Shown one piece after another: positions 14,016-56,801 of a stretch of DNA of 64,000 bases; the stretch's first letter is position 1; every line of letters starts with the position of its first letter. This stretch comes from an uncultured Alphaproteobacteria bacterium (GTDB lineage Bacteria > Pseudomonadota > Alphaproteobacteria > RF32 > CAG-239): positions 42,480 through 106,479 of the forward strand of contig CAKQPS010000001.1 in assembly GCA_934270475.1 (NCBI GenBank), read 5' to 3'. The translations under genes and the position numbers were made by a program. A model generated the notes under the pieces. It was not told the DNA's origin and searched no databases. It saw only the letters and a list, made by a program, of their open reading frames with translations.

Positions 14016-14024
14016 TTTTCTCTC

Positions 14025-14615
14025 CTACAGACTTTTTAAATACGCTTTTAGTTTTTCGACAGCCCGTCCGCGGTGCGACACTGAATTTTTTTCTTCTTTG
14101 CTCATTTGTGCAAAACTTTTAGCGAATCCGTCCGGCACAAACAGCGGATCATACCCGAATCCGCCATTTCCATGCTTTTCCAAAGCAATTTGCCCGTCAA
14201 CGCGCCCTTCAAAAAGTTTGTAGCTGCCGTCAGGAAACGCCAAAGATATAACGCAGGAGAAATGTGCTTTTCGGCTTTTATTCGGGCTCTGCGCCATTTC
14301 CGACAATAATTTTTCCATTCCTTTGTCAAAATCGCGGTTCGGAGCATAACGGGCAGAATATACCCCAGGAGCACCGTTCAAAGCATCGACGCACAATCCG
14401 GAATCATCGGCAATGCAAGGCAAACCGGTAAATTTAGCAATAGTTTGGGATTTTAAGAGAGAATTTTCGGCAAAAGTTGCGCCGGTTTCTTCCACGTCAG
14501 GTAATTCCATATCGGAAGACGATTTAACATTTATGCCAAACGGCTGCAAAAGCTCTTTGATTTCCTTAATTTTTCCGGCGTTATGACTGGCAAAAACAAC
14601 TTCTGACAACTTCAT
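14025..14615 (-). CDS. rdgB: dITP/XTP pyrophosphatase (Ham1/RdgB)
   Basis: VVFASHNAGKIKEI N-terminus typical of the Ham1 family; 196 aa. Confidence 0.85.
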   Translation of the reverse strand: MKLSEVVFASHNAGKIKEIKELLQPFGINVKSSSDMELPDVEETGATFAENSLLKSQTIAKFTGLPCIADDSGLCVDALNGAPGVYSARYAPNRDFDKGMEKLLSEMAQSPNKSRKAHFSCVISLAFPDGSYKLFEGRVDGQIALEKHGNGGFGYDPLFVPDGFAKSFAQMSKEEKNSVSHRGRAVEKLKAYLKSL

Positions 14616-17077: not shown

Positions 17078-17597
17078 GAAAAAAGAAATCATTATCAATA
17101 AAGAGCATACGCTGGAAGATTTGACCAGCGTTTCCAAAACCATTATGCCGCTGGCAAAACAGCTTTTGGGCGCCAAAGGCATGCTGGAAATGGAAATTTT
17201 ATCAGACTGGACCGCTATTGTCGGCGAAGAACTGGCACAATATTCCCTGCCGCAAAAAATATCTTTCCGCAAAGACGAGCGCAGCAACGGAACTCTTGAG
17301 TTGTTGGTTTTAAGCGGAGCGTTTGCCTTGGAAATCCAACACCGCGAATCTCAAATTCTAAACAAAATCAACGCTTATTTCGGATATGACGCCGTGGCAA
17401 AACTGAAAATAATTCAAAACAGCTGCCCTGAAAATTTTTTATTCACTAAAAAACCCATTGATAATGTGAAAAAAAATCTTGTATCTCCCGAAGAACACAA
17501 CTATATTACGGAAATAATTAAAGACGTGGATAACAATGAGCTGCGCCGCCACTTGGAAATTTTAGGCGAAGCGGTATTGGGAAGCAAAAAATCTTAG
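17069..17597 (+). CDS. DUF721/DciA-like protein (putative helicase-loader family)
   Basis: Start re-assigned to the ATG at 17069, overlapping the xerD stop by 9 bp; W..IVG..LA..S.P.K......G.L.L.V.....A.E pattern fits the DUF721 consensus. Confidence 0.4.
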
Positions 17598-38874: not shown

Positions 38875-39888
38875 ATGGCAAACAGCGATGTGATGGAAGA
38901 TGATGACTTTGAAAAACTGTTAAACAGCTTTATAAATGATTCTTTGGAAGAAGAATCGGCTGAAAAAGCTTCGTCTATGCCGGCGGAAGAAAAAATCAGC
39001 CAACTTAAAAACAATCAAAACAATGACGGCACTGCCGAAGATGATGATGAATTGCAAGAAGATGAGATTGACTATGCTTCTGCTTTGAGTCCAGAAGACC
39101 AAGCAGTTAATAACTTTATTTCGCAAAACGATATGGACGACGCCTTAGTTTCTTCTTTGCAAGACGCCAAAGCCGAAGCTCAAAATGCCCAAGAAGAACC
39201 GACGCTCGGCAATGATGAATCTGAATTGGCGCAAGCCTTTATGAATTATTACAACTCCGTAAATAAACTGTCGTTGACTAAACTAAACACTCCGTATATG
39301 TGCACGTTTTCGGTTGAAGACCTTTACCCGAACTATAAACCAAGCGTGGGACATATTCTTACTAGCGATATTGCCGCCGGCTGGGTATTGCTGTGCAAAA
39401 TGTTTCCTGAACAAGTAGGAACATTTCCGCTTAACTCCAGCGATGAAGAATTTTTGAGCTTTGCAGAAAAACTGACTGACAATGATTTGCAGCTGGCAGT
39501 TATTTCATATGTTGAAATTTTAATAGACATAGAAGGGTGTGAATTAAGCTATCAAGCTAAGTTTTTAAAATATCAGGAAAAACACATCAAGCGTCTTATG
39601 TATGAAGAATATATGAACCGCAAAGAAAGACAGCGCAAATTTACCGAAGCTTTAGCGGCAAAAAATTTTCCGGTAGACGCAGACAGGCTGATAAGCAATT
39701 ATTTTAGAGTGGCGCAAAAAGACGTTGACGGCGCGTTTAAGGCGTTAACCACCAATCCAGCGATTTTTGCCCCGATTGACTTCAGCAAAATAAAACCGCG
39801 CTGGTTTGGCTTGGTAAAAGTATCACCAAAGGACGGTATCCGCATAAATTTGGAAATCGGTAACTTTTTGAAAAGACTCAAAGTTTAG
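38875..39888 (+). CDS. Hypothetical acidic protein (operon gene A)
   Basis: ATG with upstream GGAG; D/E-rich N-terminal ~150 aa then a globular C-terminal domain; no known motif. Confidence 0.5.
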   Translation: MANSDVMEDDDFEKLLNSFINDSLEEESAEKASSMPAEEKISQLKNNQNNDGTAEDDDELQEDEIDYASALSPEDQAVNNFISQNDMDDALVSSLQDAKAEAQNAQEEPTLGNDESELAQAFMNYYNSVNKLSLTKLNTPYMCTFSVEDLYPNYKPSVGHILTSDIAAGWVLLCKMFPEQVGTFPLNSSDEEFLSFAEKLTDNDLQLAVISYVEILIDIEGCELSYQAKFLKYQEKHIKRLMYEEYMNRKERQRKFTEALAAKNFPVDADRLISNYFRVAQKDVDGAFKALTTNPAIFAPIDFSKIKPRWFGLVKVSPKDGIRINLEIGNFLKRLKV

Positions 39889-39960: not shown

Positions 39961-41928
39961 ATGGCTGATAACAAGCAAGAAGAAATGCAATTGAAAAAAG
40001 CGGCTAATCTCTTTTTAAAGGCAGTAAAAGAAAACGCCTCCGACAAAAAATTTTCGGAATTGCTGGCTAAAAATCCCAAATTGTTAGTATCTAAGGAATT
40101 TACGGATAAATTGTTTCCGAATCAAATGACAAAACAGAAAGGATTTGCTTCTTTAGACAAAATGATGATGAACATCAGCAAAGTAAAAGAACTTGCCGAC
40201 AAAGGCATTATCAGTTCGGAACAACTTGAAACATTTATGGAATCCAGCCATTCGCAAACCGGTGAGACTTTTGCCACCGCTGCCGCTCAGCAAGCTGAAG
40301 CCGCCAAAGAAAAAGCAAATCATGAAAATCCTTCTTTTTCGGAAGAAGGAAAAAACAAGCTGTCGGATAATTTGCAAAACTATGAAGACTGTTTGGAAAA
40401 AATGGAAGAACTCGGCGTACCGATGGATTTGCCAAACCGCGCCGGAAAAAATGCGAAAGATATATATTCTAAAAACGCCGAAGACAGCAAAGATTTCGCA
40501 AATGCTCTGCAGGTCAGCATTGAAGACAACAGCAATGAAAAAGGAAATTTGGAAATAGACGGCGAAGCGCTGAAAGTTAAGGTTGAAGAAAAACCGGTTG
40601 AAGAAAAACCGGTTAAAGTAAATGTTGCGGAAGAATCTAACAAAAAAGAAGAAGATGAAGTCGACGCCGATGTTACAAAAGCTCCGAAAGATGATTCCGC
40701 TAAAAGCGGCAATTCTGACATCGATCTTGTAAAAGAACAAGACATTATTGATTATATGTATAACCAATGGTTCTTAGCATCTGTGAATTGGACAATTCGC
40801 AAAGGAGTCCGCTGGTCTGATAACAAAGTGGACAACCTGTGCGAAAAATTTGATAAAAAATGCATGGAAAACAGCAAAAATAAAGAAGAAAAACAGAAAA
40901 ACAGAGTCAGTGAATTTCAAAAAGGCGGACAATATCTGCTGACCGACGGTGCTAAAAAATTAAGAGACGGTTACTCGGTTGATAAAGATAAAAGACTGGC
41001 AATGTGGAAAGAAGTTGCCGCTAACTTAGGCAAAGACCCGCAGACTTGGACGGTTTTGAATCCGAAAAACGACAAAACTAAGCAATTTATCTGCATGATA
41101 AATACCGAATACAAGCAAGACCCGCAGCATTGCACCAACAAAGTTAAAGGCATTATTCAAAATTATGATAAAAATCAAGATGAAGAAACTCAGCTTTATG
41201 CTTTAGCCGTTGAGCTGGCTGCCACCGAAATAGCCTATGAAGGAATGGGCAGCGGACGTGCCAAACGCGGAGTGCAATTCCAATATAACTTGGGCGATTT
41301 AACCGCTAAAGAGATGGATACAAAGCTAAAAAAGAGAACTATAGAAAAAACCAAAGAATTGCTGGAAAACCTTGAAAAATTACAATTATTTGCAGAACTA
41401 AAAGCAGCTCAAGAAGGCATAACTGATAAAGAAAAGATTGAAAAAGCAAAAGGCGATTTTATCAAAGTATATCTTGATACTTTATCCGATAAAACCATTG
41501 ACTGTCAGAAAAAACTGCTGAAAGATTTGAATGAAGAAAACTTCAGCCGCGCCAAAACCGGTGTTATAAAAGACTTATTCAATAAAGGACTGTCTAAAGA
41601 TTCTATTGAGAGCTATTCGGCTATAAAAAAGCTTAAAAACATTGATAACTTAGGCTATTCTGTACTTGTTAAAGGGCACAAGGACGAAATTAAAGACTTG
41701 CGGGCTGATGCAGTAGAGCGCCTTACAAAATCTCCGCTAGATGAGTTAAATGACAAGTTCAATAGAAAAATGCAACAAGAGACCACTTCTCAGGAAGAGC
41801 ATAATTCCCGCGAAACTAAATTCAGACAGCTGAAAAAAGAAATACTGAGAGGTGAAAATTCCGGTAAAATATTGAACGACAAAAATAATGGCTTAAACAA
41901 TCTTTGGAAAACATCGCAAGGACGCTGA
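39961..41928 (+). CDS. Hypothetical Lys/Glu-rich coiled-coil protein, 655 aa (operon gene B)
   Basis: GGAG RBS; long ORF with a strong codon periodicity; internal EEKPVEEKPV repeat. Confidence 0.55.
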   Translation: MADNKQEEMQLKKAANLFLKAVKENASDKKFSELLAKNPKLLVSKEFTDKLFPNQMTKQKGFASLDKMMMNISKVKELADKGIISSEQLETFMESSHSQTGETFATAAAQQAEAAKEKANHENPSFSEEGKNKLSDNLQNYEDCLEKMEELGVPMDLPNRAGKNAKDIYSKNAEDSKDFANALQVSIEDNSNEKGNLEIDGEALKVKVEEKPVEEKPVKVNVAEESNKKEEDEVDADVTKAPKDDSAKSGNSDIDLVKEQDIIDYMYNQWFLASVNWTIRKGVRWSDNKVDNLCEKFDKKCMENSKNKEEKQKNRVSEFQKGGQYLLTDGAKKLRDGYSVDKDKRLAMWKEVAANLGKDPQTWTVLNPKNDKTKQFICMINTEYKQDPQHCTNKVKGIIQNYDKNQDEETQLYALAVELAATEIAYEGMGSGRAKRGVQFQYNLGDLTAKEMDTKLKKRTIEKTKELLENLEKLQLFAELKAAQEGITDKEKIEKAKGDFIKVYLDTLSDKTIDCQKKLLKDLNEENFSRAKTGVIKDLFNKGLSKDSIESYSAIKKLKNIDNLGYSVLVKGHKDEIKDLRADAVERLTKSPLDELNDKFNRKMQQETTSQEEHNSRETKFRQLKKEILRGENSGKILNDKNNGLNNLWKTSQGR

Positions 41929-41933
41929 AAAAA

Positions 41934-42422
41934 ATGATAGAAAAGACTCTTCACTGCATTTGTGTTTTAGCCGCCGGAGCATTGTTCAGCGCTTTGCTGC
42001 TGCTAATCTACCAGCTTGCCTTTTTTTACTGCTATCAAATAGACATTATGGCTCCGCAAACCTATGCCTCTATCCGCAATTATTGGGATGACGGCGGAGT
42101 TTTGAAAGCCGGCGATTTATTTATGCTGATTGGGATTTTTTCATATTTTCCATTGATATTTTTTGTTTGGCGCAAGTTAATTAAATATCAATATATGAAC
42201 CTGATTACCAAGCCTGTTAACTGGCTGGCAAATTTGGGAATGGACAAATACAGCGGCGGTATGCCGGAAGTAAATATTAAAAACCTGAAAATTGAGGAGA
42301 GAAAAACTATAGAACAACTGGTGCAAGAGCGTATAGAGCTGGAAAATAAAAAGAATCCTAAAACCGATACAGCGCAATTTAGAAAAGAAATTGTTGAAAA
42401 GATAGAAAATGACATCAATTAA
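41934..42422 (+). CDS. Hypothetical small membrane protein (operon gene C)
   Basis: Two hydrophobic segments then a charged coiled-coil tail; starts 5 nt after the gene B stop (alternative start 41904 overlaps B). Confidence 0.45.
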   Translation: MIEKTLHCICVLAAGALFSALLLLIYQLAFFYCYQIDIMAPQTYASIRNYWDDGGVLKAGDLFMLIGIFSYFPLIFFVWRKLIKYQYMNLITKPVNWLANLGMDKYSGGMPEVNIKNLKIEERKTIEQLVQERIELENKKNPKTDTAQFRKEIVEKIENDIN

Positions 42423-42476: not shown

Positions 42477-43985
42477 GTGAAATCCTTAATTGTCTTTGCA
42501 AGAATAATTATCGTGGGGTGCCTATGGAGCATTGTCTTCGTAGAGGGCATTCGCGTAATTATGCTCTGCAACTGGCACTTTGATATTTTTTGGCCTGATC
42601 ACTGGCGCCAAGCCTATGCGCTGTGGAAAGCGGGCTGGGTAATTCGCGCGCCTAAAGAATGGGCTTTTGTGATTATTCTCGTGACATTTTTCCCAATGCT
42701 TATCACTGGTTGGTGGACGCTGTGCATGGTGGCGTGGGAACGCATTATATATGACATTATAATGTCGCCGATTATGCTTTACCGCCGCTTGATTAAAGCT
42801 CCTATCAATGTGATTAAAACCAACAATAAATACGGCGTGGTAAAGAAAAAATCATATAAACAGGTACGCCCTGCCGGTGTTGGTTTCAGAATGCCTATTT
42901 CTGATTATTCCGACAATAAATCGGCAGCTCCGGTAACGGCTGGCGTGGGCGGCAACGCGGTTTTGCCATCGCAAGTCCGTCAAGTTCCAACAGCCCCGAG
43001 CGCCTCGGCGCCAGCGGCGTCTAAAACAGCAAGAAAAACCGACATTCCGTCAACTATCGACCATGCTTTATTCAAATTTGATGATGATGACGATGATTTT
43101 GATTTGGATATAGATTCTTTTGAAAAAGCCGATATCTTAAAGAAAAAAGAACCGGCAAAGCCAAAAAAACCTCTGTTTGATGATGATGACGATGAAGATG
43201 ACGAGGATTTCCAGCCGCGCAAAAATAAACGCGATGACGACAGCGGCTCTAAGCGTTCGGCGAAAAAACCTGTTTTTGATGATGACGATGATGAAGATGA
43301 CGAGGATTTCCAGCCGCGCAGCAACAATCGCCGCAACAACAAAAACGACCGCAATTCTGACAATGGCGGCAAAGACCCGCGGCAGAAAAATAACAAGCAA
43401 AATCGTACAGATTCCAAAGCGGACAAGTCTAACCGCGGCAATAAACAAAACAACAGCTCTGATGATTCTGATGAGGCTAATACTCCGCACAGTCCGGTTT
43501 ATGACAGCCTGCAGCAAAAAGGCTACGACGTTATCGCCGGAGTTAATGTCAACAACACTGTGATTGACTTTGTCGGCGTTTCCGAAACAGAAATCTGTTT
43601 GTGTTTGGTAGACAAGGAAAACGGCGACTGGTTGGCTGATGAAGAATTGTTTAACGGCGAAGAGCCTCTGTGGTTTTCAGAAAACAGCCATAGAATTTCA
43701 CCGGTACGCAAATTAGATGTTGCGCGCAATGTGATTCGTGATAAACTTGCCGAAGAAGACTTTGAGCAAGAAGTTAAATCTTATGTGGTGGTGCAAATGG
43801 CAAACATTATCAATGCCGACGATATGTTTGAAGTTTGGAATAAAATGGATATTGAAGTAACTAGAATCAACCGCGGCGCACCGAAAGAAATTCATCTGTT
43901 TTCAAAGTCGCTTGATGAAGCCGACGGACAAATCGACCACAAAGAACTCAACCGTTTGCGCAAAGTTTTAAAAAACATTAAATAG
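42477..43985 (+). CDS. Hypothetical inner-membrane protein with D/E-rich tandem repeats and a C-terminal globular domain (operon gene D), translationally coupled to the T4CP
   Basis: GTG start with GGAG RBS; ~110-aa N-terminal multi-TM region, low-complexity linker with the repeat FDDDDDEDDEDFQPR, then a ~170-aa C-terminal domain; stop lies 8 nt before the next start. Confidence 0.6.
   Translation: MKSLIVFARIIIVGCLWSIVFVEGIRVIMLCNWHFDIFWPDHWRQAYALWKAGWVIRAPKEWAFVIILVTFFPMLITGWWTLCMVAWERIIYDIIMSPIMLYRRLIKAPINVIKTNNKYGVVKKKSYKQVRPAGVGFRMPISDYSDNKSAAPVTAGVGGNAVLPSQVRQVPTAPSASAPAASKTARKTDIPSTIDHALFKFDDDDDDFDLDIDSFEKADILKKKEPAKPKKPLFDDDDDEDDEDFQPRKNKRDDDSGSKRSAKKPVFDDDDDEDDEDFQPRSNNRRNNKNDRNSDNGGKDPRQKNNKQNRTDSKADKSNRGNKQNNSSDDSDEANTPHSPVYDSLQQKGYDVIAGVNVNNTVIDFVGVSETEICLCLVDKENGDWLADEELFNGEEPLWFSENSHRISPVRKLDVARNVIRDKLAEEDFEQEVKSYVVVQMANIINADDMFEVWNKMDIEVTRINRGAPKEIHLFSKSLDEADGQIDHKELNRLRKVLKNIK
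43163..43332 (+). repeat. In-frame tandem DNA repeat (~99-bp unit, 2 copies plus a partial upstream copy) encoding K-P-x-FDDDDDEDDEDFQPR
   Basis: AAAAAACCTsTkTTTGATGATGAyGAyGATGAAGATGACGAGGATTTCCAGCCGCGCA is seen twice. Confidence 0.6.
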
Positions 43986-43993
43986 AGGTTAAA

Positions 43994-46207
43994 ATGGCAT
44001 TAAAAGAACGTGGTGAAGAATGGAAAGAATATGACAGCGCCGTCCGCTGGATGATGATTACTTTTCTGATTTGTTTGGGACTGACAATTTTTCTGTTTGT
44101 TTTTGCCCTGCCCTTGTCATATTTGGTTGGACACGGTATTTCAAAAGCATCTTTTGAAATGATACAAAAGTTTTTGGGTTTGATTGTAGAAAAACCAAGC
44201 CATTTGTGGGCAATGTATGCCAAATGGTTCAGGCAGCTTATCCGCTATCACGGCGCTTTTTCACTTAGTTTGTGGCTGCCGATTCTGCCGTTTATTACTC
44301 TGCCGGTGGGTTTGATTGTCGGCTCTTTGCTCAGCCCGTATAAATTCCAAGTTAATACTCAAGGTTCGGCACGAATCGCAGAACTGCGTGACATTAACAA
44401 AATGGCGCTGCTGGGATTTGACGGCTTTTGTCAGGTTGTGGGCAAATTTAAAGGGCGTTTCTTAATGCTGAAAGAAACCTTATCCACTTTGTGCTGTGCT
44501 CCTCCGGGTACTGGTAAAACAGCCGGCGTGGTTATTCCGACAATTTTTAACTCCGATAAATTAAGCATTATCGTAAACGACCCGAAGCCGGAACTTTGCT
44601 ATTCCACTACCGGTGCCCGCGCTAAGGTTGGTCCCGTGTTTGTAATTAACTGGGGTGCCGAAGACAATCCGAGCGAAGGTATTTATTACCCAAGCTGGAA
44701 TCCGCTGTCGCCGAACTCGATGCCTGATGCTGGTCCGGACCGCGATATGTATGTGGACTCTATGTGCAACATTTTGGTGGAAGACCCTAAAGGCGGCACT
44801 GACCCGCACTGGTCAAATACCGGTCGTGCCGCACTAACCGGCTTTATTAACTTTGTGGCGTCTAAATGTGACCGCGCCCGCGCCAACGATTATTTTATCG
44901 GGCGAATTTATGAGGGCAAGCTGGACGCTAAAGATAAAGAAGTGCTGGAAGGCTACTATATGGAAATGCGCGATCCAGCGGCTCCGCGCGCTATTCAAAA
45001 CCTAAAAAACGGCACGTTAACCATGGAAAACTATCTGCCAATCGGCACTTGGAACTTGCTGCCGGCACGTTGGATGGGACGCGAAGCCTGCATTGCCATG
45101 ATTATGGAATGGATTACTGAAGCGCAAATCAACGCCGCCCAAGAAATTCAACGCCGTATGGACGAAGGCGACCAAATGGCTGCCATGGCCGACCCAACGC
45201 ATGATATGCTGGAAGAAGCCGTGAAAGAAGCCCGCAACTTTGGTTATTCGCAGCGCTGTATCACTGAATTAAGCTCACTCAGCAGTATGCCGGATAAAGA
45301 GCGCGGCTCCGTGCTTTCCACTGCTTTTGCCGGTATCGGCTGTTTCAAAAACCAAGCGGTAAAAGCCCGCACCAGCTTTTCGGATATTCAATTCAAAGAC
45401 CTGCGCGGTATGAAAGACCCTGTCACCGGCGAATGGAAGCCGATTTCGGTATATCTTTCCGTAAACCAAGTAGACGCACGAGCTTTGGGCGTTATCAGCA
45501 GTACATTTATTGAATTGATGTCGTCATACCTGATTTCTAACCCGCCTAACCATGTTAATAAAACAGACGGCAAAATGGGACCTTTCCCAGCATTGTTCAT
45601 CTTGGACGAGTTTCCGCAAATGCCGAAAATGAAAGCTATTATCGACGGACCTGCCGTAGGTCGTGGTCAAAAAGTGTCTTATTTGCTGATTGGACAAGAC
45701 TTGGGGCAAATCTCCGGCAAATATGGTAAAGATGACCTTGAAACGGTTATTTCCACCACTGCCTGCAAGATTATTCTTTCTCAAAACAACGAGGTTACAG
45801 CGCAGCGTTTTTCCAAGATGATTGGCAACAAAACCGTGCAAGTTTCGTCTTTTAGCCGTACAGAAGGCAGCTTGGGCAAAGACTTTAACCCGCTCGCTAA
45901 AAATGTAAATTATCAAATGCAAGGCGTGCCGGTTATCAGTTCAACTCAATTATTGAGCTTGCCTATGCTTAAACAAGTTGTTTTGATGCAAAGCTACATT
46001 GACCGTCCGATTATGGCGGATTCGCCTCGTTGGTATCTAGACCCGAAAATGCGTAAGTTGGCTAAAATACCGCCTTGCCCGAATGTTCCGGATTGGATTG
46101 TGGCACAGCGTGAAGATATCAACGACGATATGCTGGCAAAACTCGGAATTGAATATGAGGCTGACGAAGATAACGACAATTTTGAGGTCGACAGTCCGCA
46201 AGCCTAA
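43994..46207 (+). CDS. Type IV secretion coupling protein (VirD4/TraG/DotL family, T4CP)
   Basis: Two N-terminal TM helices; Walker A CCAPPGTGKTAG (~44498-44527), IVNDPKPEL (the DPKGE-type motif of the TraG/VirD4 family), Walker B ALFILDEFPQM (~45590-45615), acidic C-terminal tail EADEDNDNFEVD. Confidence 0.8.
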   Translation: MALKERGEEWKEYDSAVRWMMITFLICLGLTIFLFVFALPLSYLVGHGISKASFEMIQKFLGLIVEKPSHLWAMYAKWFRQLIRYHGAFSLSLWLPILPFITLPVGLIVGSLLSPYKFQVNTQGSARIAELRDINKMALLGFDGFCQVVGKFKGRFLMLKETLSTLCCAPPGTGKTAGVVIPTIFNSDKLSIIVNDPKPELCYSTTGARAKVGPVFVINWGAEDNPSEGIYYPSWNPLSPNSMPDAGPDRDMYVDSMCNILVEDPKGGTDPHWSNTGRAALTGFINFVASKCDRARANDYFIGRIYEGKLDAKDKEVLEGYYMEMRDPAAPRAIQNLKNGTLTMENYLPIGTWNLLPARWMGREACIAMIMEWITEAQINAAQEIQRRMDEGDQMAAMADPTHDMLEEAVKEARNFGYSQRCITELSSLSSMPDKERGSVLSTAFAGIGCFKNQAVKARTSFSDIQFKDLRGMKDPVTGEWKPISVYLSVNQVDARALGVISSTFIELMSSYLISNPPNHVNKTDGKMGPFPALFILDEFPQMPKMKAIIDGPAVGRGQKVSYLLIGQDLGQISGKYGKDDLETVISTTACKIILSQNNEVTAQRFSKMIGNKTVQVSSFSRTEGSLGKDFNPLAKNVNYQMQGVPVISSTQLLSLPMLKQVVLMQSYIDRPIMADSPRWYLDPKMRKLAKIPPCPNVPDWIVAQREDINDDMLAKLGIEYEADEDNDNFEVDSPQA

Positions 46208-46228
46208 CGTATTTAAATATTTGCCAAA

Positions 46229-46273
46229 CCGTCGTCTTTGTTGGCGGCGGTTTTTGCTTTTTTATGTATTTTG
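46229..46273 (+). terminator. Rho-independent terminator after the T4CP gene
   Basis: ACCGTCGTC-tttgtt-GGCGGCGGT stem (with G-U pairs) followed by TTTTTGCTTTTTTAT. Confidence 0.6.
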
Positions 46274-47819: not shown

Positions 47820-50800
47820 TTATATTTCCTTTACCAATGAAACGCCGGCAATGGCGCGGATTGACGACAGCAAGTCGCCGTTTGCCAAAGCATAGCCGTT
47901 TTTAAGTTCTATACGAATATCCCAATCGTCATTTTCCGGCTTGATATAAACCTTATTGGTGCCGTAGCGCTCATGCGACAGCACTTCGCGAATCGGACGC
48001 ACGGCTTCAACATTGTTCACAACAATAATCAGCCCTTTTGAGTTTTCCGTTATTTCCTCGTCCAAAGTTTTTATGACATTAAACAGCATGCGCGGAGGCA
48101 TATCTTCTGCCTGCTTTTCTATTTTTACTTTGACGAAAAGCGGCAAACCGCTGTTTATGGCATGTTCAAATTTAGTTATTCCGTCAGAAAATAACAAGCC
48201 TTCGTAAGCTGACGTGGTGTCTGAAAGCTTTACAAAAGCAAACGGCTTGCCGCTTTTGCTGATTTTTTTCTGAAATCCCTGCAAACAGCCGGCAAGGTTA
48301 GCATAAATTGTATCGCCGGTTTTTATACCTTTTATCGCATCAGCGTAAGTAGTGACGCCTAAACGCTCCATACTTTCTTTATAGACATCAAGCGGGTGCG
48401 CCGATAAATAGAAGCCAATGGCTTCTGCCTCAAACTGCAGGCGTTCCAAAGCCGGCCAATCCGGTTTATCCTGTAATTTTACGGTTGAGTTGAGCTCTTC
48501 ACTGCCAAACAGCGAGGTTTGCGAACTGTTTTTAAGCTCTGCCGCAGCGGCAATGTGGCGCATGATATTTTCAATATTGGCAAAAAGCTTGCCGCGGTTG
48601 GTATCTAAGCAGTCAAAAGCACCGGCTTTTATCAGCTGCTCGAGCTGTTTGCGGTTGATTTGCTTTACGTCCACGCGGTGAATAAAGTCGGAAATGCTTT
48701 TAAATTTGCCGTTTTTCTCACGTTCTTCGACAATAGCGTTCATATTTGCCTCGCCCACGCCTTTTAAGCCGGCAAGAGCAAAGCGGATATTATTTCCCTC
48801 AACCTTAAACAAGGCATTAGACATATTGATATCCGGCGACAAAACCTTATAACCCATTTTTTTGAACTCTTCGGTATAGAACAAAACCTTGTCGGTGTTG
48901 GTTATATCAAAGTCCATAATGGCGCACATAAATTCTACCGGATAATGGGCTTTTAAATACGCTGTTTGGTAAGAAATCAGCGAATATGCAGCGGCGTGTG
49001 ATTTGTTAAACCCGTAAGACGCAAACTTTTCCATTTGGTCAAAAATGGTCTTGGCAACTTCGCCGTCTATGCCTTTTTTGATGGCACCGTCGGTAAACAT
49101 TTGGCGCTGATGCGGAATTTCATCGCGCATTTTTTTACCCATAACCTTACGCAGCTTATCGGCACCACCCAAAGTATAGCCTCCCAAAACCTGAGCAATT
49201 TTCATCACCTGCTCTTGGTAAACCATAATTCCGTAGGTTTCGCCCAAAATCGGTTCCAAGTCAGGGTGCAGATATTTAATCTCTTCCCGTCCGTGCTTGC
49301 GGTTGATATAGGTTGGAATATTATCCATCGGTCCCGGGCGGTAAAGAGAAATAACGGCGATTAAATCTTCAAAACGGTCAGGTTTTATTTGTTTCATTAC
49401 ATCGCGCATGCCGGAAGATTCAAATTGGAAAATAGCACTGGTATTGCCTTCCTGCATCAGCTCATAAGTCGGCTTATCGTCCAAAGGAACCGCCGCCATA
49501 TCCAGTTCAATGCCATGGGTCTTCTTTACCCAATCCACCGCGCGCTTGATAACTGTCAGAGTTTTCAGCCCCAAAAAGTCAAACTTAATCAGACCGGTTT
49601 CTTCTACAAACTTCATATCATATTGAGTTACCGGCATTTCGGCACGCGGATCTTTATAAAGCGGCACCAGCTGGTCAAGCGGTCTATCGCCGATAACCAC
49701 ACCGGCGGCATGCATACCGGAGTTGCGGTATAAGCCTTCAAGTTTCATGGCTATATCAAACAGCTTGTTAATCTGCGGATCTTTTACCCGCATTTCTTCC
49801 AGCTCAGGCACTTGGTCTAAAGCTTCCTGCAAGGTTGGGTTTTTACCACCCTGCCCCGGCGGAATCATTTTAGAAATTCTATCCGCTTGGCTATACGGCA
49901 TTTGCAGCACACGCGCCACATCGCGAATTACAGCTTTTGACTGCAATTTACCATAGGTGATAATTTGCGCCACATGGTCGTAACCATATTTTTTTTGCAC
50001 ATATTCAATGGTTTTATGGCGGTTTTCCTGACACAAGTCCACGTCAAAATCCGGCATGTTAACGCGTTCCGGATTCAAAAATCTTTCAAACAGCAAATCT
50101 AAGCGAATCGGATCCAAGTCGGTAATTTTCAGCGACCACGCCACAATGGAACCGGCACCGGAACCACGCCCCGGACCAATCGGCACGCCGTGGGTCTTAG
50201 ACCAGCGGATAAAATCAGACACGATAAGGAAATAACCAGGGAAGCCCATTTTTTTGATAACGCTTAATTCATAATCCAAGCGCTCATAATAATGACGGTC
50301 GATTTCAGCACGTTCTTCCGCGCTCATTCCCTTGTGATAAACTTGAACCTTCATACGTTCATTTAAACCCTTATAGGCTTCTTCGGTAATGAACTCGTCT
50401 TGGGTTTTGCCTTCGGGACAAATAAAAATCGGCAGCAGCGGCTCCATTTTATAGGAAAGATAGTTGCAGCGCTTGGCAATATTAACCGTATTTTCTACAG
50501 CTTCCGGAATATCCTTGAAAAGCTCCAGCATTTCGGTTTCACTGCGCCAGTGATTACCAGGGAGATATTTGCGGCGGTTCTCATTTGCCACATATTCTCC
50601 GGCAGCAATGCAGCAAAGTGCGTCGTGCGCCTCATACATGCTTTCATCAAAAAAGAAAACATCGTTCGTTGCCACCAGTGGGATATTATGCTTATAGGCA
50701 AGCTTTAAAAACACTGATTCGGTTTTCTTTTCTTCCTCATAGCCGACGCGGGAAATTTCCATATAGAGCCGGTCACCGAAAATTTCTTTATATTCAAGCA

Positions 50801-51293
50801 GCTTTTGTTCGGCTTCATCATTGCGGTTTTGCAAAATGAGCCGCCCGATTGGTCCTTCATAGCCGCCGGTAAGACAAATTAAACCCTCATTGAAATCACG
50901 CAGATTCTGCATAGTCAGCTGCGGAGTGTCGCTATGTTCCATATTATCCAAATAATAGCGGCGAAACATTTTCATAATAGATTTATAGCCGGTTTCATCT
51001 TTTACCAGCAAAATAATTCTATCCGGCGGCAGTTCCTTGCCTTTTGACAAAGCTAAGTTTTCCGAATCCTCATTATGCACGCAAAGCTCCGAGCCGAGAA
51101 TCGGCTTAACTCCTTCATCTGAAGCATATTTTGAAAAGCATTTTCCGCCAAACAAATTGCCTCGGTCGGTAATGGCGCAGCAAGGTATGCCCAAATCGTG
51201 CATTTTATGCACCAACTTAGGTACAAGCATAGCGCCAAGCGATAAAGAATAAGCGGTATGAACGCGCAAATGTATAAATTTCGGATCGGTCAT
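47820..51293 (-). CDS. dnaE: DNA polymerase III alpha subunit
   Basis: 1157 aa; N-terminal PHP domain (HLRVHTAYSL) and polymerase core motifs. Confidence 0.9.
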   Translation of the reverse strand: MTDPKFIHLRVHTAYSLSLGAMLVPKLVHKMHDLGIPCCAITDRGNLFGGKCFSKYASDEGVKPILGSELCVHNEDSENLALSKGKELPPDRIILLVKDETGYKSIMKMFRRYYLDNMEHSDTPQLTMQNLRDFNEGLICLTGGYEGPIGRLILQNRNDEAEQKLLEYKEIFGDRLYMEISRVGYEEEKKTESVFLKLAYKHNIPLVATNDVFFFDESMYEAHDALCCIAAGEYVANENRRKYLPGNHWRSETEMLELFKDIPEAVENTVNIAKRCNYLSYKMEPLLPIFICPEGKTQDEFITEEAYKGLNERMKVQVYHKGMSAEERAEIDRHYYERLDYELSVIKKMGFPGYFLIVSDFIRWSKTHGVPIGPGRGSGAGSIVAWSLKITDLDPIRLDLLFERFLNPERVNMPDFDVDLCQENRHKTIEYVQKKYGYDHVAQIITYGKLQSKAVIRDVARVLQMPYSQADRISKMIPPGQGGKNPTLQEALDQVPELEEMRVKDPQINKLFDIAMKLEGLYRNSGMHAAGVVIGDRPLDQLVPLYKDPRAEMPVTQYDMKFVEETGLIKFDFLGLKTLTVIKRAVDWVKKTHGIELDMAAVPLDDKPTYELMQEGNTSAIFQFESSGMRDVMKQIKPDRFEDLIAVISLYRPGPMDNIPTYINRKHGREEIKYLHPDLEPILGETYGIMVYQEQVMKIAQVLGGYTLGGADKLRKVMGKKMRDEIPHQRQMFTDGAIKKGIDGEVAKTIFDQMEKFASYGFNKSHAAAYSLISYQTAYLKAHYPVEFMCAIMDFDITNTDKVLFYTEEFKKMGYKVLSPDINMSNALFKVEGNNIRFALAGLKGVGEANMNAIVEEREKNGKFKSISDFIHRVDVKQINRKQLEQLIKAGAFDCLDTNRGKLFANIENIMRHIAAAAELKNSSQTSLFGSEELNSTVKLQDKPDWPALERLQFEAEAIGFYLSAHPLDVYKESMERLGVTTYADAIKGIKTGDTIYANLAGCLQGFQKKISKSGKPFAFVKLSDTTSAYEGLLFSDGITKFEHAINSGLPLFVKVKIEKQAEDMPPRMLFNVIKTLDEEITENSKGLIIVVNNVEAVRPIREVLSHERYGTNKVYIKPENDDWDIRIELKNGYALANGDLLSSIRAIAGVSLVKEI

Positions 51294-51344
51294 AGCATCG
51301 GAAAGGCGCCCTGTTTTAGAAGGACGCCCCTTATTTACTAAAAG

Positions 51345-51590
51345 CTATTTGTTATCTGAGCTGGCTTTTTGATAGCAACGGCAGTGGCAAATTCCATCGC
51401 GTTCAATATCGCTGCGGCAAAGTTCAGAAATGCAGTATCTTTTTTCATTGTTACCGTCGCATGGGCAGCGCTGCCATTCATTGTCGCCAAACATCATATT
51501 TTTAGCTTTGGCAATTTTTTCAATATTCTGAGTCGGATAGTATCCGGCTTTTTTGCAGTTTTCCAACATTTTTTCTAAAATTGTAGCCAT
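51345..51590 (-). CDS. Small Cys-rich protein resembling the ferredoxin-thioredoxin reductase catalytic subunit (CPC...CHC)
   Basis: 81 aa with QRCPCDG and ICHCRCY motifs, matching the FTR-B signature. Confidence 0.4.
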   Translation of the reverse strand: MATILEKMLENCKKAGYYPTQNIEKIAKAKNMMFGDNEWQRCPCDGNNEKRYCISELCRSDIERDGICHCRCYQKASSDNK

Positions 51591-51600
51591 TTCAATTCTC

Positions 51601-52515
51601 CTATCTTTGTTCTAATATATCTAAAATTGAGCTTAATTCAGCCGGTGTGTTATAGTGCAATGTTATACTACCTTTACCTTTTTTTCCAGCATTTATTTTA
51701 ACTTTCAGCTTTAATTTTTCTTCCAAATCCGCCATAATTTTTTGCAAATCCAAATCCACCGGTTTAGGCTCTTTTGGCGTGATATTGTTTACGGTTATTC
51801 CTTTGGCATTGGCAGCTAAGGTTTCTGCCTCACGCACGCTCAAGCCTTCTTTAACAATTTTGTTTGCCAGCTCAACCGCATTTTCGCAGCCAATCAAAGC
51901 GCGGGCATGACCGGCTGAGAGCTTATTTTCTTTTACCAGCTGTTTAATTTCTTCAGGCAAGCTAAGCAAACGCAAAGTATTGGCTATATAGCTGCGTGAT
52001 TTACCGATAACTTTGCCAATAATTTCCTGCGTATATTCATATTCATTCATTAAGCGGTTCAAGCCTTCAGCTTCTTCAATAGCCGAAAGATTTTCACGCT
52101 GCAGGTTTTCGATTAAAGCAATCTCTAAAGTTTCGCTGTCTGACAAATCTTTTACAATTGCCGGAACTTTATCTAATCCGGCAAGCTGAGCGGCGCGCCA
52201 ACGGCGTTCACCGGCAATAATTTCATATTTATCATTTTTCTTACGAACCAACAGCGGCTGTAAAACACCTTTCTCCTTAATTGATGCGGCTAAAGATTCC
52301 AAAGCATCGCGATCAAATTCCGTACGCGGCTGGAAAGCACACGGTATAATATCAGCGACTTTTATTTCATTTGAATTTTCTTTTTTAAATACAGTGTTTT
52401 CAACCAAGCTTTCAACATCTGCGGTCTCATCATCTAAATTCAGGTTTATTTCTTCATCACCAAGCAGCGCTTCCAAACCGCGACCAAGACCAAATTTTTT
52501 ATTATTAGTGTTCAT
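51601..52515 (-). CDS. parB: Chromosome partitioning protein ParB
   Basis: GERRWRAAQLAG ParB box and HTH; 304 aa. Confidence 0.85.
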   Translation of the reverse strand: MNTNNKKFGLGRGLEALLGDEEINLNLDDETADVESLVENTVFKKENSNEIKVADIIPCAFQPRTEFDRDALESLAASIKEKGVLQPLLVRKKNDKYEIIAGERRWRAAQLAGLDKVPAIVKDLSDSETLEIALIENLQRENLSAIEEAEGLNRLMNEYEYTQEIIGKVIGKSRSYIANTLRLLSLPEEIKQLVKENKLSAGHARALIGCENAVELANKIVKEGLSVREAETLAANAKGITVNNITPKEPKPVDLDLQKIMADLEEKLKLKVKINAGKKGKGSITLHYNTPAELSSILDILEQR

Positions 52516-53283
52516 CTACAACTCCTTTTCTCTTTTTAAAACTTCTTTTGCCAGCTGAATATAGGCTTGCGCACCAGCGCTTTTAAAATCATAAATCAAA
52601 ATCGGCTTGCCATGCGACGGAGCTTCAGCAATTCTCACGCTTCTTGGAATAACCGTTTGATAAACTTTGTCGCCAAAATATTTACGCACATCAGCCTCTA
52701 TCATTTGGCTAAGATTGTTTTGTTTGCTGTACATTGTGAGAATAATACCCTGCAAAGTCAAAGCTGGATTAAAATTACGCTTGATAGCATTGATATTTTT
52801 CATTAAATCCGCTAAGCCTTCCAACGCTAAAAATTCGCATTGCAGCGGAACCATTACCGAATTTGAACTAACCAGCGCGTTAATAGTAATTAAATTCAGC
52901 GACGGCGGGCAGTCAATCAGCACATAATCATATACTGCCTCTAAGCTGCTCAAAGCTTTTTTCAGCACAAACTCGCGCTTTTCAACTTCTACCAATTCAA
53001 TTTCGGCAGCAGCCAAATCCGGTGAGGACGGTATCATATCAAATCTCGGCAAATCGGTATGCAAAATCGCCTCTTTGACATCGCACTTGCCAATCAAAAC
53101 ATCATAGGAAGAATAGTTTTCTTTTTGCTTGGCTATTCCCATAGAAGTTGTAGCATTGCCTTGCGGGTCAAAATCTATGACCAGCACACGGCGCCCGATT
53201 GCCGACAAAGCTGTAGCAATATTGATTGTTGTTGTTGTTTTTCCCACACCGCCTTTGCGGTTTGCAACAGATATTATTTTCAT
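52516..53283 (-). CDS. parA: Chromosome partitioning ATPase ParA
   Basis: Deviant Walker A NRKGGVGKTTT; 255 aa. Confidence 0.85.
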   Translation of the reverse strand: MKIISVANRKGGVGKTTTTINIATALSAIGRRVLVIDFDPQGNATTSMGIAKQKENYSSYDVLIGKCDVKEAILHTDLPRFDMIPSSPDLAAAEIELVEVEKREFVLKKALSSLEAVYDYVLIDCPPSLNLITINALVSSNSVMVPLQCEFLALEGLADLMKNINAIKRNFNPALTLQGIILTMYSKQNNLSQMIEADVRKYFGDKVYQTVIPRSVRIAEAPSHGKPILIYDFKSAGAQAYIQLAKEVLKREKEL

Positions 53284-53927
53284 TTTCTAGTCACCTCTGT
53301 CAAACAAAAAACATAGCCTTCTTTTCCACGTTCAACTTCAAACGGGCGGGCATAAAAGTTTTCAAAAATATCTACGCTCATATTCCACTTTTTATCTGCC
53401 TCTTCCAATTCTGCCATACCGGTATGACCTTTCGGCAAAACATATTCTGTATTTTTAGAACACAAACCAGTTGTGCAAGCTAGAATTTTATCAATTGAAG
53501 CCACAGCGCGGGCAGTAATGTAGTCAACATTTTTAAATACAACGTTTTCAGCTCGATTATTTATAACTTCGACATTTTGCAAATTTAACCGCTGACACAC
53601 GTCTTTTAAATATACCGTCTTTTTAGTTATACTTTCAATTAAAACAACTTTAGCCGCTGGAAATTTCTCTGCCATAGCAATAGCCAAAACAACTCCGGGG
53701 AAACCGGAGCCGCTGCCGACATCAACAAGCAATTTCACATCATCTCGCAGATAATCTATCAGCTGCAGCGAATCTAACACATGGCGCAATTCTAGTTCTT
53801 TTTCAGCATTTTTACTGACTAAATTTATTTTTTGATTCCATTCCAAAAGAATTTGCATAAAATCTTTCAATTTTTGCAATGTTTCACGTGAAACATGATA
53901 ATTTAAAACTTCTTCATCAAAATTCAT
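53280..53927 (-). CDS. rsmG: 16S rRNA m7G527 methyltransferase RsmG (GidB)
   Basis: SAM motif VGSGSGFPGVVLAI; 215 aa; synteny with mnmG. Confidence 0.85.
   Translation of the reverse strand: MNFDEEVLNYHVSRETLQKLKDFMQILLEWNQKINLVSKNAEKELELRHVLDSLQLIDYLRDDVKLLVDVGSGSGFPGVVLAIAMAEKFPAAKVVLIESITKKTVYLKDVCQRLNLQNVEVINNRAENVVFKNVDYITARAVASIDKILACTTGLCSKNTEYVLPKGHTGMAELEEADKKWNMSVDIFENFYARPFEVERGKEGYVFCLTEVTRK
53880..53895. repeat. 16-bp perfect palindrome TGTTTCACGTGAAACA, copy 1 (inside rsmG; extends to the 18-bp ATGTTTCACGTGAAACAT)
   Basis: Exact string match to the copies at 55130 and 57963. Confidence 0.8.
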
Positions 53928-53993
53928 TTTGTACCTCTAAAGACAGAGTATAGATTATTTGCTTTTTATGCAACAAAATATAATGGTTATTAA

Positions 53994-54836
53994 CTAAAAC
54001 TTTAAACGATTTTTTATGCCAAACCGCGATAAACACGCTTCAGCTAAATCAAATCTATCGCCGAGTTCGGAAACAGCGTGTGCATCATCGCTGATAACAA
54101 ACTTTATATTGCGTTCTGCCGCGGCAGCTAAAATTGTTTTACACGGATAAAAGTCTCCGATTTTACGCAAACCTTTGGTGCTTATCTCCATTGGTCTATT
54201 TTGTTTTTGCAAAACATCTAATATCTCAAGTTGTTCAGGCAGATAATTTTCCGGCACATAAATTCCGTCACCAAGCTTACGAGCATAATCAATATGGGCT
54301 AAAAATTTAAATACACCGCTTTCAACAGCTCTTTTAATAGTTTTAAAGTGACGGTATAAAAATTCCTGCTGCATTGAATAGTCAGAATATAGAATCGGCA
54401 AATCATATATATCAAAAAGATTTTCGCATTTTTCATCAAACAGCATATGATTACCAGTGATGACATAATCATAATCTAGTTTACTCAAAAAATCTTTAAA
54501 TTCTTCCAACCAACCGTCATAGGTAAAGAAATCAACCTCGAAGCCGATATATAGTTTTATACTTTCTGTTTTTGAAAGTTTGCGGATTTCCTCACAGTGT
54601 TTTTGAAATTCCGGCAAAGCTGCTTTAAAATCATTTTTAAAAATATGGTCGTTGCCGCGTTTTTTCCATAAGGGACAAGACAAACTTTGCTGCATATTTT
54701 TATGAATACAAAGATGGTCGCTAATTCCGAGTTCACAAAAGCCCAAAGACTTTGCTTTAGTCACCATTTCTTCTAAAGAGTTTTTGCCGTCCGAAAAATT
54801 TGTATGCGTATGATATGAAAAATTTTGCACCATCAT
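53994..54836 (-). CDS. PHP-domain phosphoesterase (histidinol-phosphatase-like)
   Basis: [10 protein letters not shown]-terminal metal-binding motif and C-terminal DDAH; start overlaps the mnmG stop (ATGA). Confidence 0.65.
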
Positions 54837-56677
54837 TTTTTTATGTATCCCAATATAGCAGTTACAGCTGCCGGAGTTACACCTTTTATACGAGATGCCT
54901 CACCGATAGTTTTAGGCTTAACTGCACTAAAACGCTGTATCATTTCCGTAGAAAGTCCACCGATTTTAGAGTAGTCTATATCATCGCTGATTTGCAGATT
55001 TTCATCACGTTTAAATACAGCGATATCTTCATATTCACGTTTCAAATAGCCCGAATACTTAGCATTTATTTCAACTTGTTCGAAAATATCGTCTTCTATG
55101 TTACTGCTTTCAGGTGCAATTTTAGATATTGTTTCACGTGAAACATCTTGATAGCCCAGCAGGTCTTTTAAGGTCTTTTTACCATTATGCTTAACCGTAA
55201 TTCCTAAAGATTCAATTTCAGGATAAGAGATAAATTTGCAGGAACAATACTCATCAAACTTTTTGATTTTTTCCTCTTTATTTTTAAATACAGTGTATCT
55301 ATTATTTGAAACACAGCCGATATTATAACCAAGTTCGGTTAAACGCGCATCTGCATTATCTGCCCGCAGCACCAAACGATATTCAGAACGAGATGTAAAC
55401 ATACGGTATGGCTCATCAACACCTTTGGTAATTAAATCATCAACCATAACGCCGATATAACCTTGACTGCGGTCAATTGTAAATTCCTTGCCGCGGTTAA
55501 GAGCGAATAGCGCAGCATTAACGCCAGCAAGCAATCCTTGGGCAGCAGCCTCTTCATATCCAGTTGTGCCGTTAATTTGCCCTGCCAAATAAAGACCTTT
55601 AGACTTTTTAACCGCTAAGCAATGGTCAAGTTCTTGCGGATTTACATAGTCATATTCAATTGCATAGGCGTATCGCAGAATCTCAACATTTTCCAATCCC
55701 TTCATTGTATGAATAAATGCGTCTTGCACATCAGCCGGCAACGATGTAGAAATACCGTTCGGATACACAACATTTGTTTCATACCCCTCAGGTTCCAAAA
55801 ATATTTGATGCGATGTTCTATCGGCAAAACGAACAAGTTTATCTTCAATACTTGGACAATAACGAGGTCCTTTTCCCGTAATCAAACCAGAAAATAATGC
55901 GCACTTAGAAAAATTATCCCTAATTATTTTATGTGTCGCCTCATTTGTATATGTTACTCCGCAATCAATTTGGCGGTTGTGCAGTTCTTTAGTTAAAAAA
56001 GAAAACGGAACCGGATTTTTATCACCGGACTGCTTCTCTAAAATATTCCAATTTATAGTGTCGCCGTTTAAACGTGACGGCGTACCGGTTTTTAAACGTC
56101 CAAGCTGCAAACCGAGAGATTTTAAATACGGTGTTACACCTGTGCAAGAAATATCGCCGACACGACCGCCGATTGAAGTTTGGTGACCGGTAAACATCAC
56201 ACCATTTAAAAATGTGCCAGTAGTTAAAACTACAGCCTTGGCGAAAATTTCGGTTTCATCAGCCAGCTTTACACCGCAGACATTGTTATCTTTTATCAGC
56301 AAGCCTTCAACAGCACCTTCTTTTAATTCCAAATTTGGAGTTTCTTGCAGTGCTTCAAGCATATATTTTTTATATAAACTTCTATCAGCTTGAGCTCGAG
56401 GTCCTCGAACAGCAGGTCCTTTAGATAAATTCAGCATTCTAAATTGAATACCTGCTTTATCAATAACACGCCCCATTAAACCATCCAAAGCATCTACTTC
56501 GCGCACCAAATGCCCTTTTCCCAATCCGCCGATAGCTGGATTGCAAGACATTTCGCCGATTGTTGAAATTTTATGCGTAACAAGCAGCGTTTCAGCACCA
56601 GTTCGAGCTGCAGCAGCACAAGCTTCACAGCCGGCATGACCACCGCCGACAACAATTACATCAAAAGTATTCTTCAT
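54833..56677 (-). CDS. mnmG: tRNA uridine-5-carboxymethylaminomethyl modification enzyme MnmG (GidA)
   Basis: FAD motif [13 protein letters not shown]; start taken at MKNTFDV with AGAGGAAAAAATG RBS. Confidence 0.9.
55130..55145. repeat. 16-bp perfect palindrome TGTTTCACGTGAAACA, copy 2 (inside mnmG)
   Basis: Exact string match. Confidence 0.8.
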
Positions 56678-56801
56678 TTTTTCCTCTAAAATTTTTCTTA
56701 CACTAAAGCACAATTCTATAATAAATGCAAATCAAAATACGCTGCATACATTTAAATACAGCGTATTTTTATACATAAAATTTTAAATACAGCGTGTTTT
56801 G

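Follow-up and report, generated by a model that had tools for sequence, protein, structure and literature searches.

The 64-kb window analysed here, which is the whole stretch of 64,000 nt spanning positions 42,480 to 106,479 of contig CAKQPS010000001.1 from an uncultured alphaproteobacterium, contains a chromosomal operon of five genes in the order A-B-C-D-T4CP, the last of which encodes a type IV coupling protein (T4CP) of the VirD4 type. This work centres on gene D (42477–43985), the product of which has 502 amino acids (aa) and combines an anchor of two transmembrane (TM) segments, a disordered linker with blocks of charge, and a NERD-like C-terminal domain. The open reading frame (ORF) begins with a GTG codon that is preceded by GGAG approximately 10 nt upstream. 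The T4CP gene (43994–46207; 737 aa) follows immediately, and a terminator-like hairpin with an 11-bp stem and a T-run (46226–46253) closes the operon; all features of the operon are given on the forward strand. The evidence described below firmly supports that the gene D product is an inner-membrane protein working together with the chromosomal VirD4-type ATPase. Across a large clade of uncultured Alphaproteobacteria from gut and rumen, the A-B-C-D-T4CP module belongs to the core genes. In the literature, we found no description of the gene D family, of a T4CP partner with a NERD fold, or of the A-B-C-D-T4CP operon.

Gene D is paired with a VirD4-type coupling protein

The start of the T4CP gene lies 8–30 nt downstream of the gene D stop codon in 82 of the 82 loci of the clade, and the two genes are likewise adjacent in all three loci of a sister clade, where the C-terminal domain of gene D is only 35–39% identical and the T4CP 55% identical. 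The tie between gene D and the coupling protein that had been proposed from the window sequence is borne out by this pairing. The original prediction also stated that the two genes are translationally coupled. The gap in the window is only 8 nt, with a GAGG lying over the TAG stop codon of gene D, which makes coupling plausible, although the two genes do not overlap.

The identification of the downstream ORF as a T4CP was confirmed by matches to the Pfam families PF02534 (E = 2.7e-56), TraG-D_C (E = 6e-22) and TrwB_AAD_bind (E = 1e-16), as well as by the presence of a P-loop (APPGTGKT) and a Walker B motif (LFILDE). The protein has the features of VirD4/TraG-type coupling proteins, namely an N-terminal transmembrane domain (TMD), a nucleotide-binding domain with Walker A and B motifs, and the PF02534, PF12696 and PF10412 domains, and it ends in an acidic, Phe-containing tail (...EDNDNFEVDSPQA). 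The best NCBIfam matches were the VirD4/TraG families; since all of the scores fell far under the equivalog cut-offs, the protein is a divergent member of the family. The closest T4CPs on plasmids, from Sphingosinicella, Microvirga and Erythrobacter, were 33% identical over 94–97% of the length, and the two closest ones inspected are each encoded by the last gene of a virB8-virB9-virB10-virB11-virD4 operon. When the anchors of gene D and gene C were compared with the TMD of the T4CP using hhalign, no relationship was detected.

A protein search returned 796 relatives of gene D, all of them unnamed or annotated as "hypothetical" and all from uncultured Alphaproteobacteria. Among GTDB contigs sampled at one genome per species, a relative of gene D was located in 373 species genomes; the best 80 of these loci came nearly all from gut, rumen or faecal metagenome-assembled genomes, with a few mislabelled bins. 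A profile search of 1.84 billion representatives recovered 419 relatives, 189 of them at E < 1e-10. Among the matches listed, most full-length relatives consisted of two N-terminal TM segments followed by the C-terminal domain, and some were TPR-X-Roc-COR-TIR or AAA+ proteins.

Across the clade the T4CP is 70–98% identical, a level equal to or above that of DnaE, ParA and sigma-70 in the same genome pairs; in one example at comparable divergence, the identity was 86% for the T4CP as compared to 78% for DnaE, 82% for ParA and 86% for sigma-70. Conservation at the level of DnaE is unusual for a conjugation-type gene. The rluD and sigma-70 genes flank the operon in most loci, and the base composition of the operon is like that of its neighbourhood, with no GC anomaly. 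No homologue of genes D, A or B was found by tblastn on 72,556 plasmids, nor was any homologue of gene D found in IMG/VR viral contigs. PADLOC matched none of the five operon proteins and PHROGs yielded nothing meaningful. The DnaE-level identity of the T4CP and the conserved flanks therefore argue for vertical inheritance under strong constraint and against a mobile element.

The anchor and the C-terminal domain of gene D

A full-length AlphaFold (AF2) model of gene D, based on an alignment of 130 sequences, agreed with the earlier description of a membrane protein with an N-terminal TM anchor and a globular C-terminal domain of about 170 aa. In the N-domain (aa 1–107; 42477–42797), helices were modelled at residues 2–33, 40–51, 59–84 and 87–107 with predicted local distance difference test (pLDDT) scores of 83–94. 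Helices 2–33 and 59–84 correspond to TM1 and TM2, helix 40–51 to a Trp-rich loop helix and helix 87–107 to a juxtamembrane helix; residues N32, W33, W43, G53, W54, W79 and W87 are invariant in two clades. Because the flank after TM2 is basic, the positive-inside rule would place the linker and the C-terminal domain in the cytoplasm. Residues 111–330 were predicted to be disordered (pLDDT <50), giving a linker of approximately 220 aa in which K/R-rich and D/E-rich segments alternate. The chain folds again at aa 335–502 (43479–43982), a C-domain of approximately 168 aa modelled with pLDDT scores of 86–97.

The predicted structure of the C-domain displays the alpha-beta-beta-beta-alpha-beta core of the restriction-endonuclease-like fold, in agreement with what had been suggested for this region, and is of the NERD-like PD-(D/E)xK kind. 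The match of the window protein to NERD (PF08378) scored 16.5 bits (E = 0.012), below the gathering cut-off of 22.1; NERD was nonetheless the only recurrent family, with 38 of 103 family members matching at E <= 0.01 (best 7.8e-7), and some gene D homologues carry a precomputed PF08378 annotation. Foldseek comparison with the PDB gave weak matches, the best being NucS (E = 0.012), and a PDB sequence search with the gene D family profile returned low-complexity noise only.

Among the membrane-anchored, T4CP-linked orthologues, D364 is conserved in 80 of 82 and D379 in 81 of 82. The catalytic D...(D/E)-x-K signature is absent, as the corresponding triplet is D379-K380-E381, with an invariant Glu at the position of the Lys. 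In the wider domain family, soluble multidomain proteins included, both D364 and D379-K380-E381 vary, and it is a different element, the loop G383-D-W-L-A-D-E-E..F-N-x-E-x-P-L-W-F-S-E..H..S-P409, that is near-invariant; in gene D the form GDWLADEE..FNGEEPLWFSE.SHR.SPV is invariant. Residues N446, W454 and R463 are conserved in the membrane-anchored family. The C-domain is acidic, with a net charge of −12 and a pI of 4.8. Since Glu replaces the Lys, the catalytic residues are not conserved family-wide and the net charge is strongly negative, the domain does not appear to be a canonical nuclease. When compared to the NERD (PF08378)/PD-(D/E)xK superfamily (Upx, AF1548, N.BspD6I, XisH, Can2 and NucS), gene D is set apart by a score under the NERD gathering threshold, by D-K-E in place of (D/E)xK, by the invariant acidic/aromatic loop DWLADEE..PLWFSE..H..SP as its hallmark, and by fusion to a 2-TM anchor that is tied to a T4CP.

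The DWLADEE..PLWFSE..H..SP hallmark was also observed inside TPR-X-Roc-COR-TIR giants and AAA+ proteins (P0200, P0215, P0263 and P0269). Judged from these sequences, DWLADEE marks a distinct, unnamed subfamily of the NERD-like fold that is used in conflict-type architectures.

The linker carries an array of acidic-aromatic motifs

One segment of the linker, motif 1 (aa 193–217; 43053–43127; TIDHALFKFDDDDDDFDLDIDSFEK), is universally conserved; it is an acidic-aromatic linear motif that includes acidic block 1. Its residues H196, L198, F199, D213 and F215 are invariant in 82 of 82 orthologues, and in the full-length model it has a pLDDT <50 and no secondary structure. A homologous motif, PSFLDDEDFANIPLDDIxLPER, lies directly before the C-domain in the T4CP-linked sister clade. 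Sequences like motif 1 are absent from a distant clade of 2TM-NERD proteins, which has other conserved linker elements. The acidic-aromatic motif hence tracks linkage to the T4CP, being found in the linked sister clade and absent from the unlinked distant one. Similar acidic-Phe motifs were seen at the N-terminus of gene A, at the N-terminus of a sister-clade protein designated d1 (DDDFRKELEAFI) and in the C-terminal tail of the T4CP. The motif may also recall the C-tail of SSB or the C-terminal peptide of FtsZ, a resemblance that was considered. The distant-clade loci (L094, 10001–11305; L095, 5110–6318; L096, 6343–7545) share the linker motifs EEERxKLQxKIKEIM and DMNFKNISEE.

Downstream of motif 1, the original prediction had described a near-perfect 99-bp tandem repeat encoding two acidic blocks and had taken it as a sign of recent expansion. 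A repeat search upheld the 99-nt periodicity: the segment at 43164–43232 (copy 2, with acidic block 2, KKPLFDDDDDEDDEDFQPR...) and that at 43263–43331 (copy 3, with acidic block 3, KKPVFDDDDDEDDEDFQPR...) are spaced by 99 nt. The resemblance is non-random but short of near-perfect, with 88% identity over 69 nt and 72% between the whole 99-nt units 2 and 3; unit 1 is 40–42% identical to the others, and Tandem Repeats Finder called no period-99 array. Three acidic blocks, not two, lie in register at 43077, 43176 and 43275, and the repeated blocks are rich in Asp, unlike the Glu-rich signals to which they had been likened. The longest exact run shared by the copies is 31 nt (43191–43221 and 43290–43320). 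It is not a chance match, since in 500 codon shuffles no exact run was longer than 18 nt within the linker or 14 nt in the gene as a whole. At the protein level, the peptides KKP[L/V]FDDDDDEDDEDFQPR at aa 230–248 and 263–281 are identical at 18 of 19 positions.

The 31-nt run and the 18 of 19 shared residues are what would be expected of a very recent tandem duplication, or of an assembly artefact, and both explanations were weighed against the relatives of gene D. Three F-(D/E)n blocks at 33-aa spacing are already present in relatives that are 70–98% identical, and the claim of recent expansion was given up on these grounds. In block 2, the nearest relative (P0001, 98% identical) and loci L008 and L009 have ...DDAPLPPR, whereas gene D of the window has ...DEDFQPR; in the DNA, the difference from the close relatives is confined to a patch of ~12 nt (about 43206–43217), and this patch is the sequence of block 3. 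The identity of the patch to block 3, together with the three blocks in the relatives, therefore points to a short gene conversion, with copy 3 as the donor and the 3' part of copy 2 as the converted segment, and not to an expansion. On this comparison, copies 2 and 3 were homogenised in part in this strain by a gene-conversion tract of ~12–31 nt, and both are lineage-specific reiterations of the acidic part of motif 1. As for an artefact, the identical 502-aa protein was called on 11 contigs, and the four contigs shown derive from four different samples, which argues that the repeat is not a product of assembly. We consider recent duplication or artefact to be highly improbable, to the point of being essentially excluded.

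The number of acidic blocks ranges from 0 to 4 across species (87 loci). The expectation of a variable copy number was supported by P0010 and P0015, which are near-identical orthologues apart from a single 33-aa unit between acidic blocks 2 and 3 that is precisely missing from P0015. In P0016, a 57-aa deletion was observed in the linker. These differences may represent real copy-number changes, for example through unequal exchange, or collapsed assemblies. It is firmly supported that the flagged repeat is one part of a long-standing and evolvable set of acidic-aromatic linear motifs, arrayed along a disordered tether, and the repeat illustrates how micro gene conversion can give an old motif array the look of a recent duplication.

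Operon partners and neighbouring genes

Gene C (41934–42422; 162 aa), located directly upstream of gene D, encodes a 2-TM membrane protein. Comparison of the gene D N-domain with the gene C family using hhalign gave a probability of 98.8% (E = 5e-17); gene C is hence a paralogue of the gene D anchor, and the operon encodes two related anchors. Gene C is found 5' of gene D in 73 loci; its distance from gene D is 31–90 nt in nearly all loci.

Gene B (39961–41928; 655 aa) is hypervariable and highly charged, with a basic C-terminal tail ending in ...SQGR. Its orthologues are 16–83% identical, and the gap between genes A and C is filled by a single ORF of 430–1070 aa in 60 of 60 loci; this ORF often touches or overlaps gene C. 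Gene B matched nothing in Pfam, PADLOC or the plasmids, and when the families of genes A and B were scanned with Pfam, only sporadic weak matches were obtained. The dipeptide [GS]R occurs within the last 4 residues in 26 of 36 gene B orthologues. Among the 51 proteins of the window, only gene B and an orphan 645-aa ORF (58286–60223; no Pfam match; ...RQTRGGR) end in GR. Based on these C-termini, the GR ending may be an export signal, and gene B is a candidate substrate or effector.

The first gene of the operon, gene A (38875–39888; 337 aa), encodes a protein with an acidic N-terminus and a conserved C-terminal domain. Orthologues were identified in 63 loci; F12, L16 and F19 are invariant in an alignment of 46 sequences, and the N-terminal motif [DE]3-F-x-[KR]-L-L-x-x-F-I is universal. 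Gene A of the window had no Pfam match, two of the 46 orthologues weakly matched NYN, and the gene A profile matched nothing in the PDB. In the sister clade (L091, 13324–14326; L092, 13403–14573; L093, 13277–14391), two conserved small genes, d1 and d2, follow the T4CP gene. The d1 proteins (180–223 aa; L092 copy at 13403–14041) end in PGR or GRGR; d2 (146–152 aa) gave weak SUKH/SMI1_KNR4 matches (E = 0.004–0.02) in three of three loci. In the one sister-clade locus inspected for it (L092), d1 is unrelated to gene A, and its start (DDDFRKELEAFI) and the gene A motif may represent a shared targeting motif, as suggested by their resemblance.

The operon is located approximately 1.6 kb from a dnaE-parB-parA-gidB-(PHP)-gidA-trmE block (47820–58145 of the window, with dnaE at 47820–51293; L097), the neighbours in which recur in many, but not all, of the species. 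A dnaE-parB-parA-gidB-gidA-trmE block is typical of origin-proximal regions. Elsewhere in the window are an AddA/AddB-type helicase-nuclease pair (UvrD and PDDEXK_1; 7748–14015), a homologue of the helicase loader DciA (16926–17597) and a PDDEXK_4 protein (5900–6838), which are ordinary housekeeping genes unrelated to gene D.

Discussion

The arrangement of gene D and its coupling protein recalls the DotM (IcmP)-DotL pair of the Legionella type IVB system and TrbA-TrbC of plasmid R64, in which a membrane-anchored partner is likewise encoded beside the T4CP. The original prediction had drawn this parallel, and as regards position, a membrane protein 5' of the T4CP with an N-terminal TM anchor and a cytoplasmic domain, it holds. 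Kinship is another matter. The gene D family profile aligned to R64 TrbA with an hhalign probability of 0.4%, no IcmP/DotM-type Pfam or NCBIfam match was found for gene D, and the T4CP is 20% identical to R64 TrbC (DotL-type) over 244 aa as compared to 33% over nearly the full length to VirD4 proteins of virB8-virB11 operons. The cytoplasmic domain of DotM is all-alpha and binds Glu-rich peptides through basic patches, whereas that of gene D is acidic, alpha/beta and of the PD-(D/E)xK fold. Recognition by charge is proposed for both proteins, with the acidic motifs on the substrate in the DotM system and on the putative receptor here. Because the T4CP is closer to VirD4 (type IVA) and the gene D profile fails against TrbA, the pair is not a type IVB relative; a reading of gene D as a diverged homologue of DotM/IcmP or TrbA, with the pair belonging to a type IVB system, has in our judgement almost no chance of being correct, and we regard it as essentially excluded.

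We favour a reading, held with no more than even confidence, in which gene D serves the T4CP as a tethered accessory subunit or adaptor within a vertically inherited chromosomal module. The anchors of genes D and C would sit in the inner membrane beside the TMD of the T4CP, and the disordered linker of gene D would act as a flexible tether. Its multivalent acidic-aromatic motifs would dock to a basic or hydrophobic site on a partner, and docking would concentrate that partner at the ATPase; the T4CP itself is one candidate for this partner, and the basic C-terminal tails of substrates, for instance gene B, are another. The C-domain, which is acidic and contains the invariant DWLADEE...PLWFSE..H..SP loop, would bind to or regulate the T4CP and not act as a canonical nuclease. 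Gene B and other proteins that have a basic C-terminus with a final GR would be the candidate clients, a pattern that is no more than suggestive. The outcome would be a DotM-like adaptor function built from unrelated parts and with inverted charge logic. There is a precedent in the F plasmid, where the tail of TraD, a short acidic peptide with a critical Phe, docks onto TraM within a T4CP-centred complex. Like TraD, the T4CP of the window has an acidic, Phe-containing C-terminal tail; the motifs of gene D differ in being internal, multivalent and on a separate membrane protein, and no TraM-like partner was identified here.

Several observations weigh against the adaptor. The distant 2TM-NERD clade has no adjacent T4CP, and its genes are located 5' of accB-accC in three of three loci. 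In the AF2 model of gene D alone, the acidic motif is left undocked. The C-terminal GR is a mere pattern, shared by 2 of 51 window proteins and 26 of 36 gene B orthologues. The retention of D364 and D379 in nearly all membrane-anchored members gives a D...D-x-E triad that fits metal-dependent catalysis. Finally, no T4SS (type IV secretion system) channel gene (VirB4, VirB6 or VirB8-11) was seen in the 64-kb window, and tblastn with VirB8-B11 of the two closest plasmid systems found none within 10 kb of gene D in 80+ genomes; the 10 kb past the end of the window held housekeeping genes only and no T4SS channel gene. With no VirB genes in the window or near gene D, a secretion role is thus without a demonstrated conduit. 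A T4SS with scattered genes, of the kind known from the Rickettsiales, may exist elsewhere in these genomes.

The same retained acidic residues are central to an alternative in which gene D is active as a tethered nuclease or nickase at the membrane and readies the DNA substrate for the T4CP motor, either as a relaxase analogue or as part of an ATPase-nuclease pair in the style of HerA-NurA. Such an enzyme could serve in the export of chromosomal DNA, in DNA uptake or in DNA clearance, with the acidic blocks as an in-cis DNA mimic that gates the nuclease. The PD-(D/E)xK/NERD fold speaks for it, as does the near-invariance of D364 and D379 in the T4CP-linked clade; together with E381 these residues could form a BamHI-like acidic triad, and a D...D-x-E triad is compatible with metal-dependent catalysis of the BamHI kind. 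T4CPs are ancestrally DNA translocases, Pfam and NCBIfam scans revealed no other relaxase-like gene in the operon, and the K/R-rich stretches between the acidic blocks could bind DNA. MOBC relaxases such as CloDF13 MobC and pAD1 TraX are restriction-endonuclease-like PD-(D/E)xK enzymes (PMC12857230). These are, like gene D, PD-(D/E)xK-fold proteins with a functional link to conjugative DNA transfer. Gene D departs from them in that it is a core chromosomal gene with no oriT, mobile-element setting or plasmid homologue, is membrane-anchored, and has a non-canonical catalytic motif in which an invariant Glu occupies the place of the Lys. In HerA-NurA pairs, a ring ATPase of the FtsK/HerA/VirD4 superfamily is likewise encoded beside a nuclease-fold partner; the fold of NurA is different, both partners here are membrane proteins, and nuclease activity is doubtful. 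Moreover, it is a different loop and not the catalytic positions that the wider family conserves, the C-domain has a strongly acidic character, and the model does not dock the acidic motif on the C-domain. From the sequence features taken together, we consider a nuclease unlikely, though it is the alternative that deserves the most attention.

Somewhat less probable still is the proposal that the VirD4-type ATPase and gene D, along with the other three operon products, make up a machine of the inner membrane that is complete in itself and needs no T4SS, and on which a whole order-level clade of gut Alphaproteobacteria has come to depend for its housekeeping. It might be a DNA or protein translocation or processing device near the origin region, and such a machine would explain both the DnaE-like conservation of the T4CP and the missing accompanying VirB genes. 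A role of the operon in defence or conflict, with a membrane NERD effector and an FtsK/VirD4-like ATPase sensing or expelling invading DNA and the hypervariable gene B engaged in an arms race, appears distinctly improbable and is less likely than either the adaptor or the nuclease. The C-domain hallmark occurs in multidomain proteins (TPR-X-Roc-COR-TIR and AAA+) of a kind that is typical for conflict systems, which would fit such a role, as would the hypervariability of gene B and the weak SUKH-like, immunity-type gene that follows the T4CP in the sister clade. What speaks against it is that PADLOC matches none of the five proteins, that homologues of the operon are not found on phages or plasmids, and that these are near-universal, syntenic, vertically inherited core genes with a T4CP conserved at the level of DnaE, unlike the patchy, mobile defence islands.

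T4CPs are known as the substrate gates of conjugation and effector secretion, with genes that usually lie in virulence loci or on mobile elements. The VirD4-type T4CP described here belongs to the vertically inherited core of ~370 species, is as slow to evolve as the replicative polymerase, and always comes with a 2TM-NERD protein that has not been described before and with three more orphan genes. If it acts as an adaptor, gene D would represent a new solution to substrate recruitment, with acidic, multivalent linear motifs on the receptor side, and proteins of the gene B type would become candidate effectors for an abundant, unstudied group of gut bacteria. Should the module operate with no T4SS channel, the notion of a "coupling protein" itself would change.

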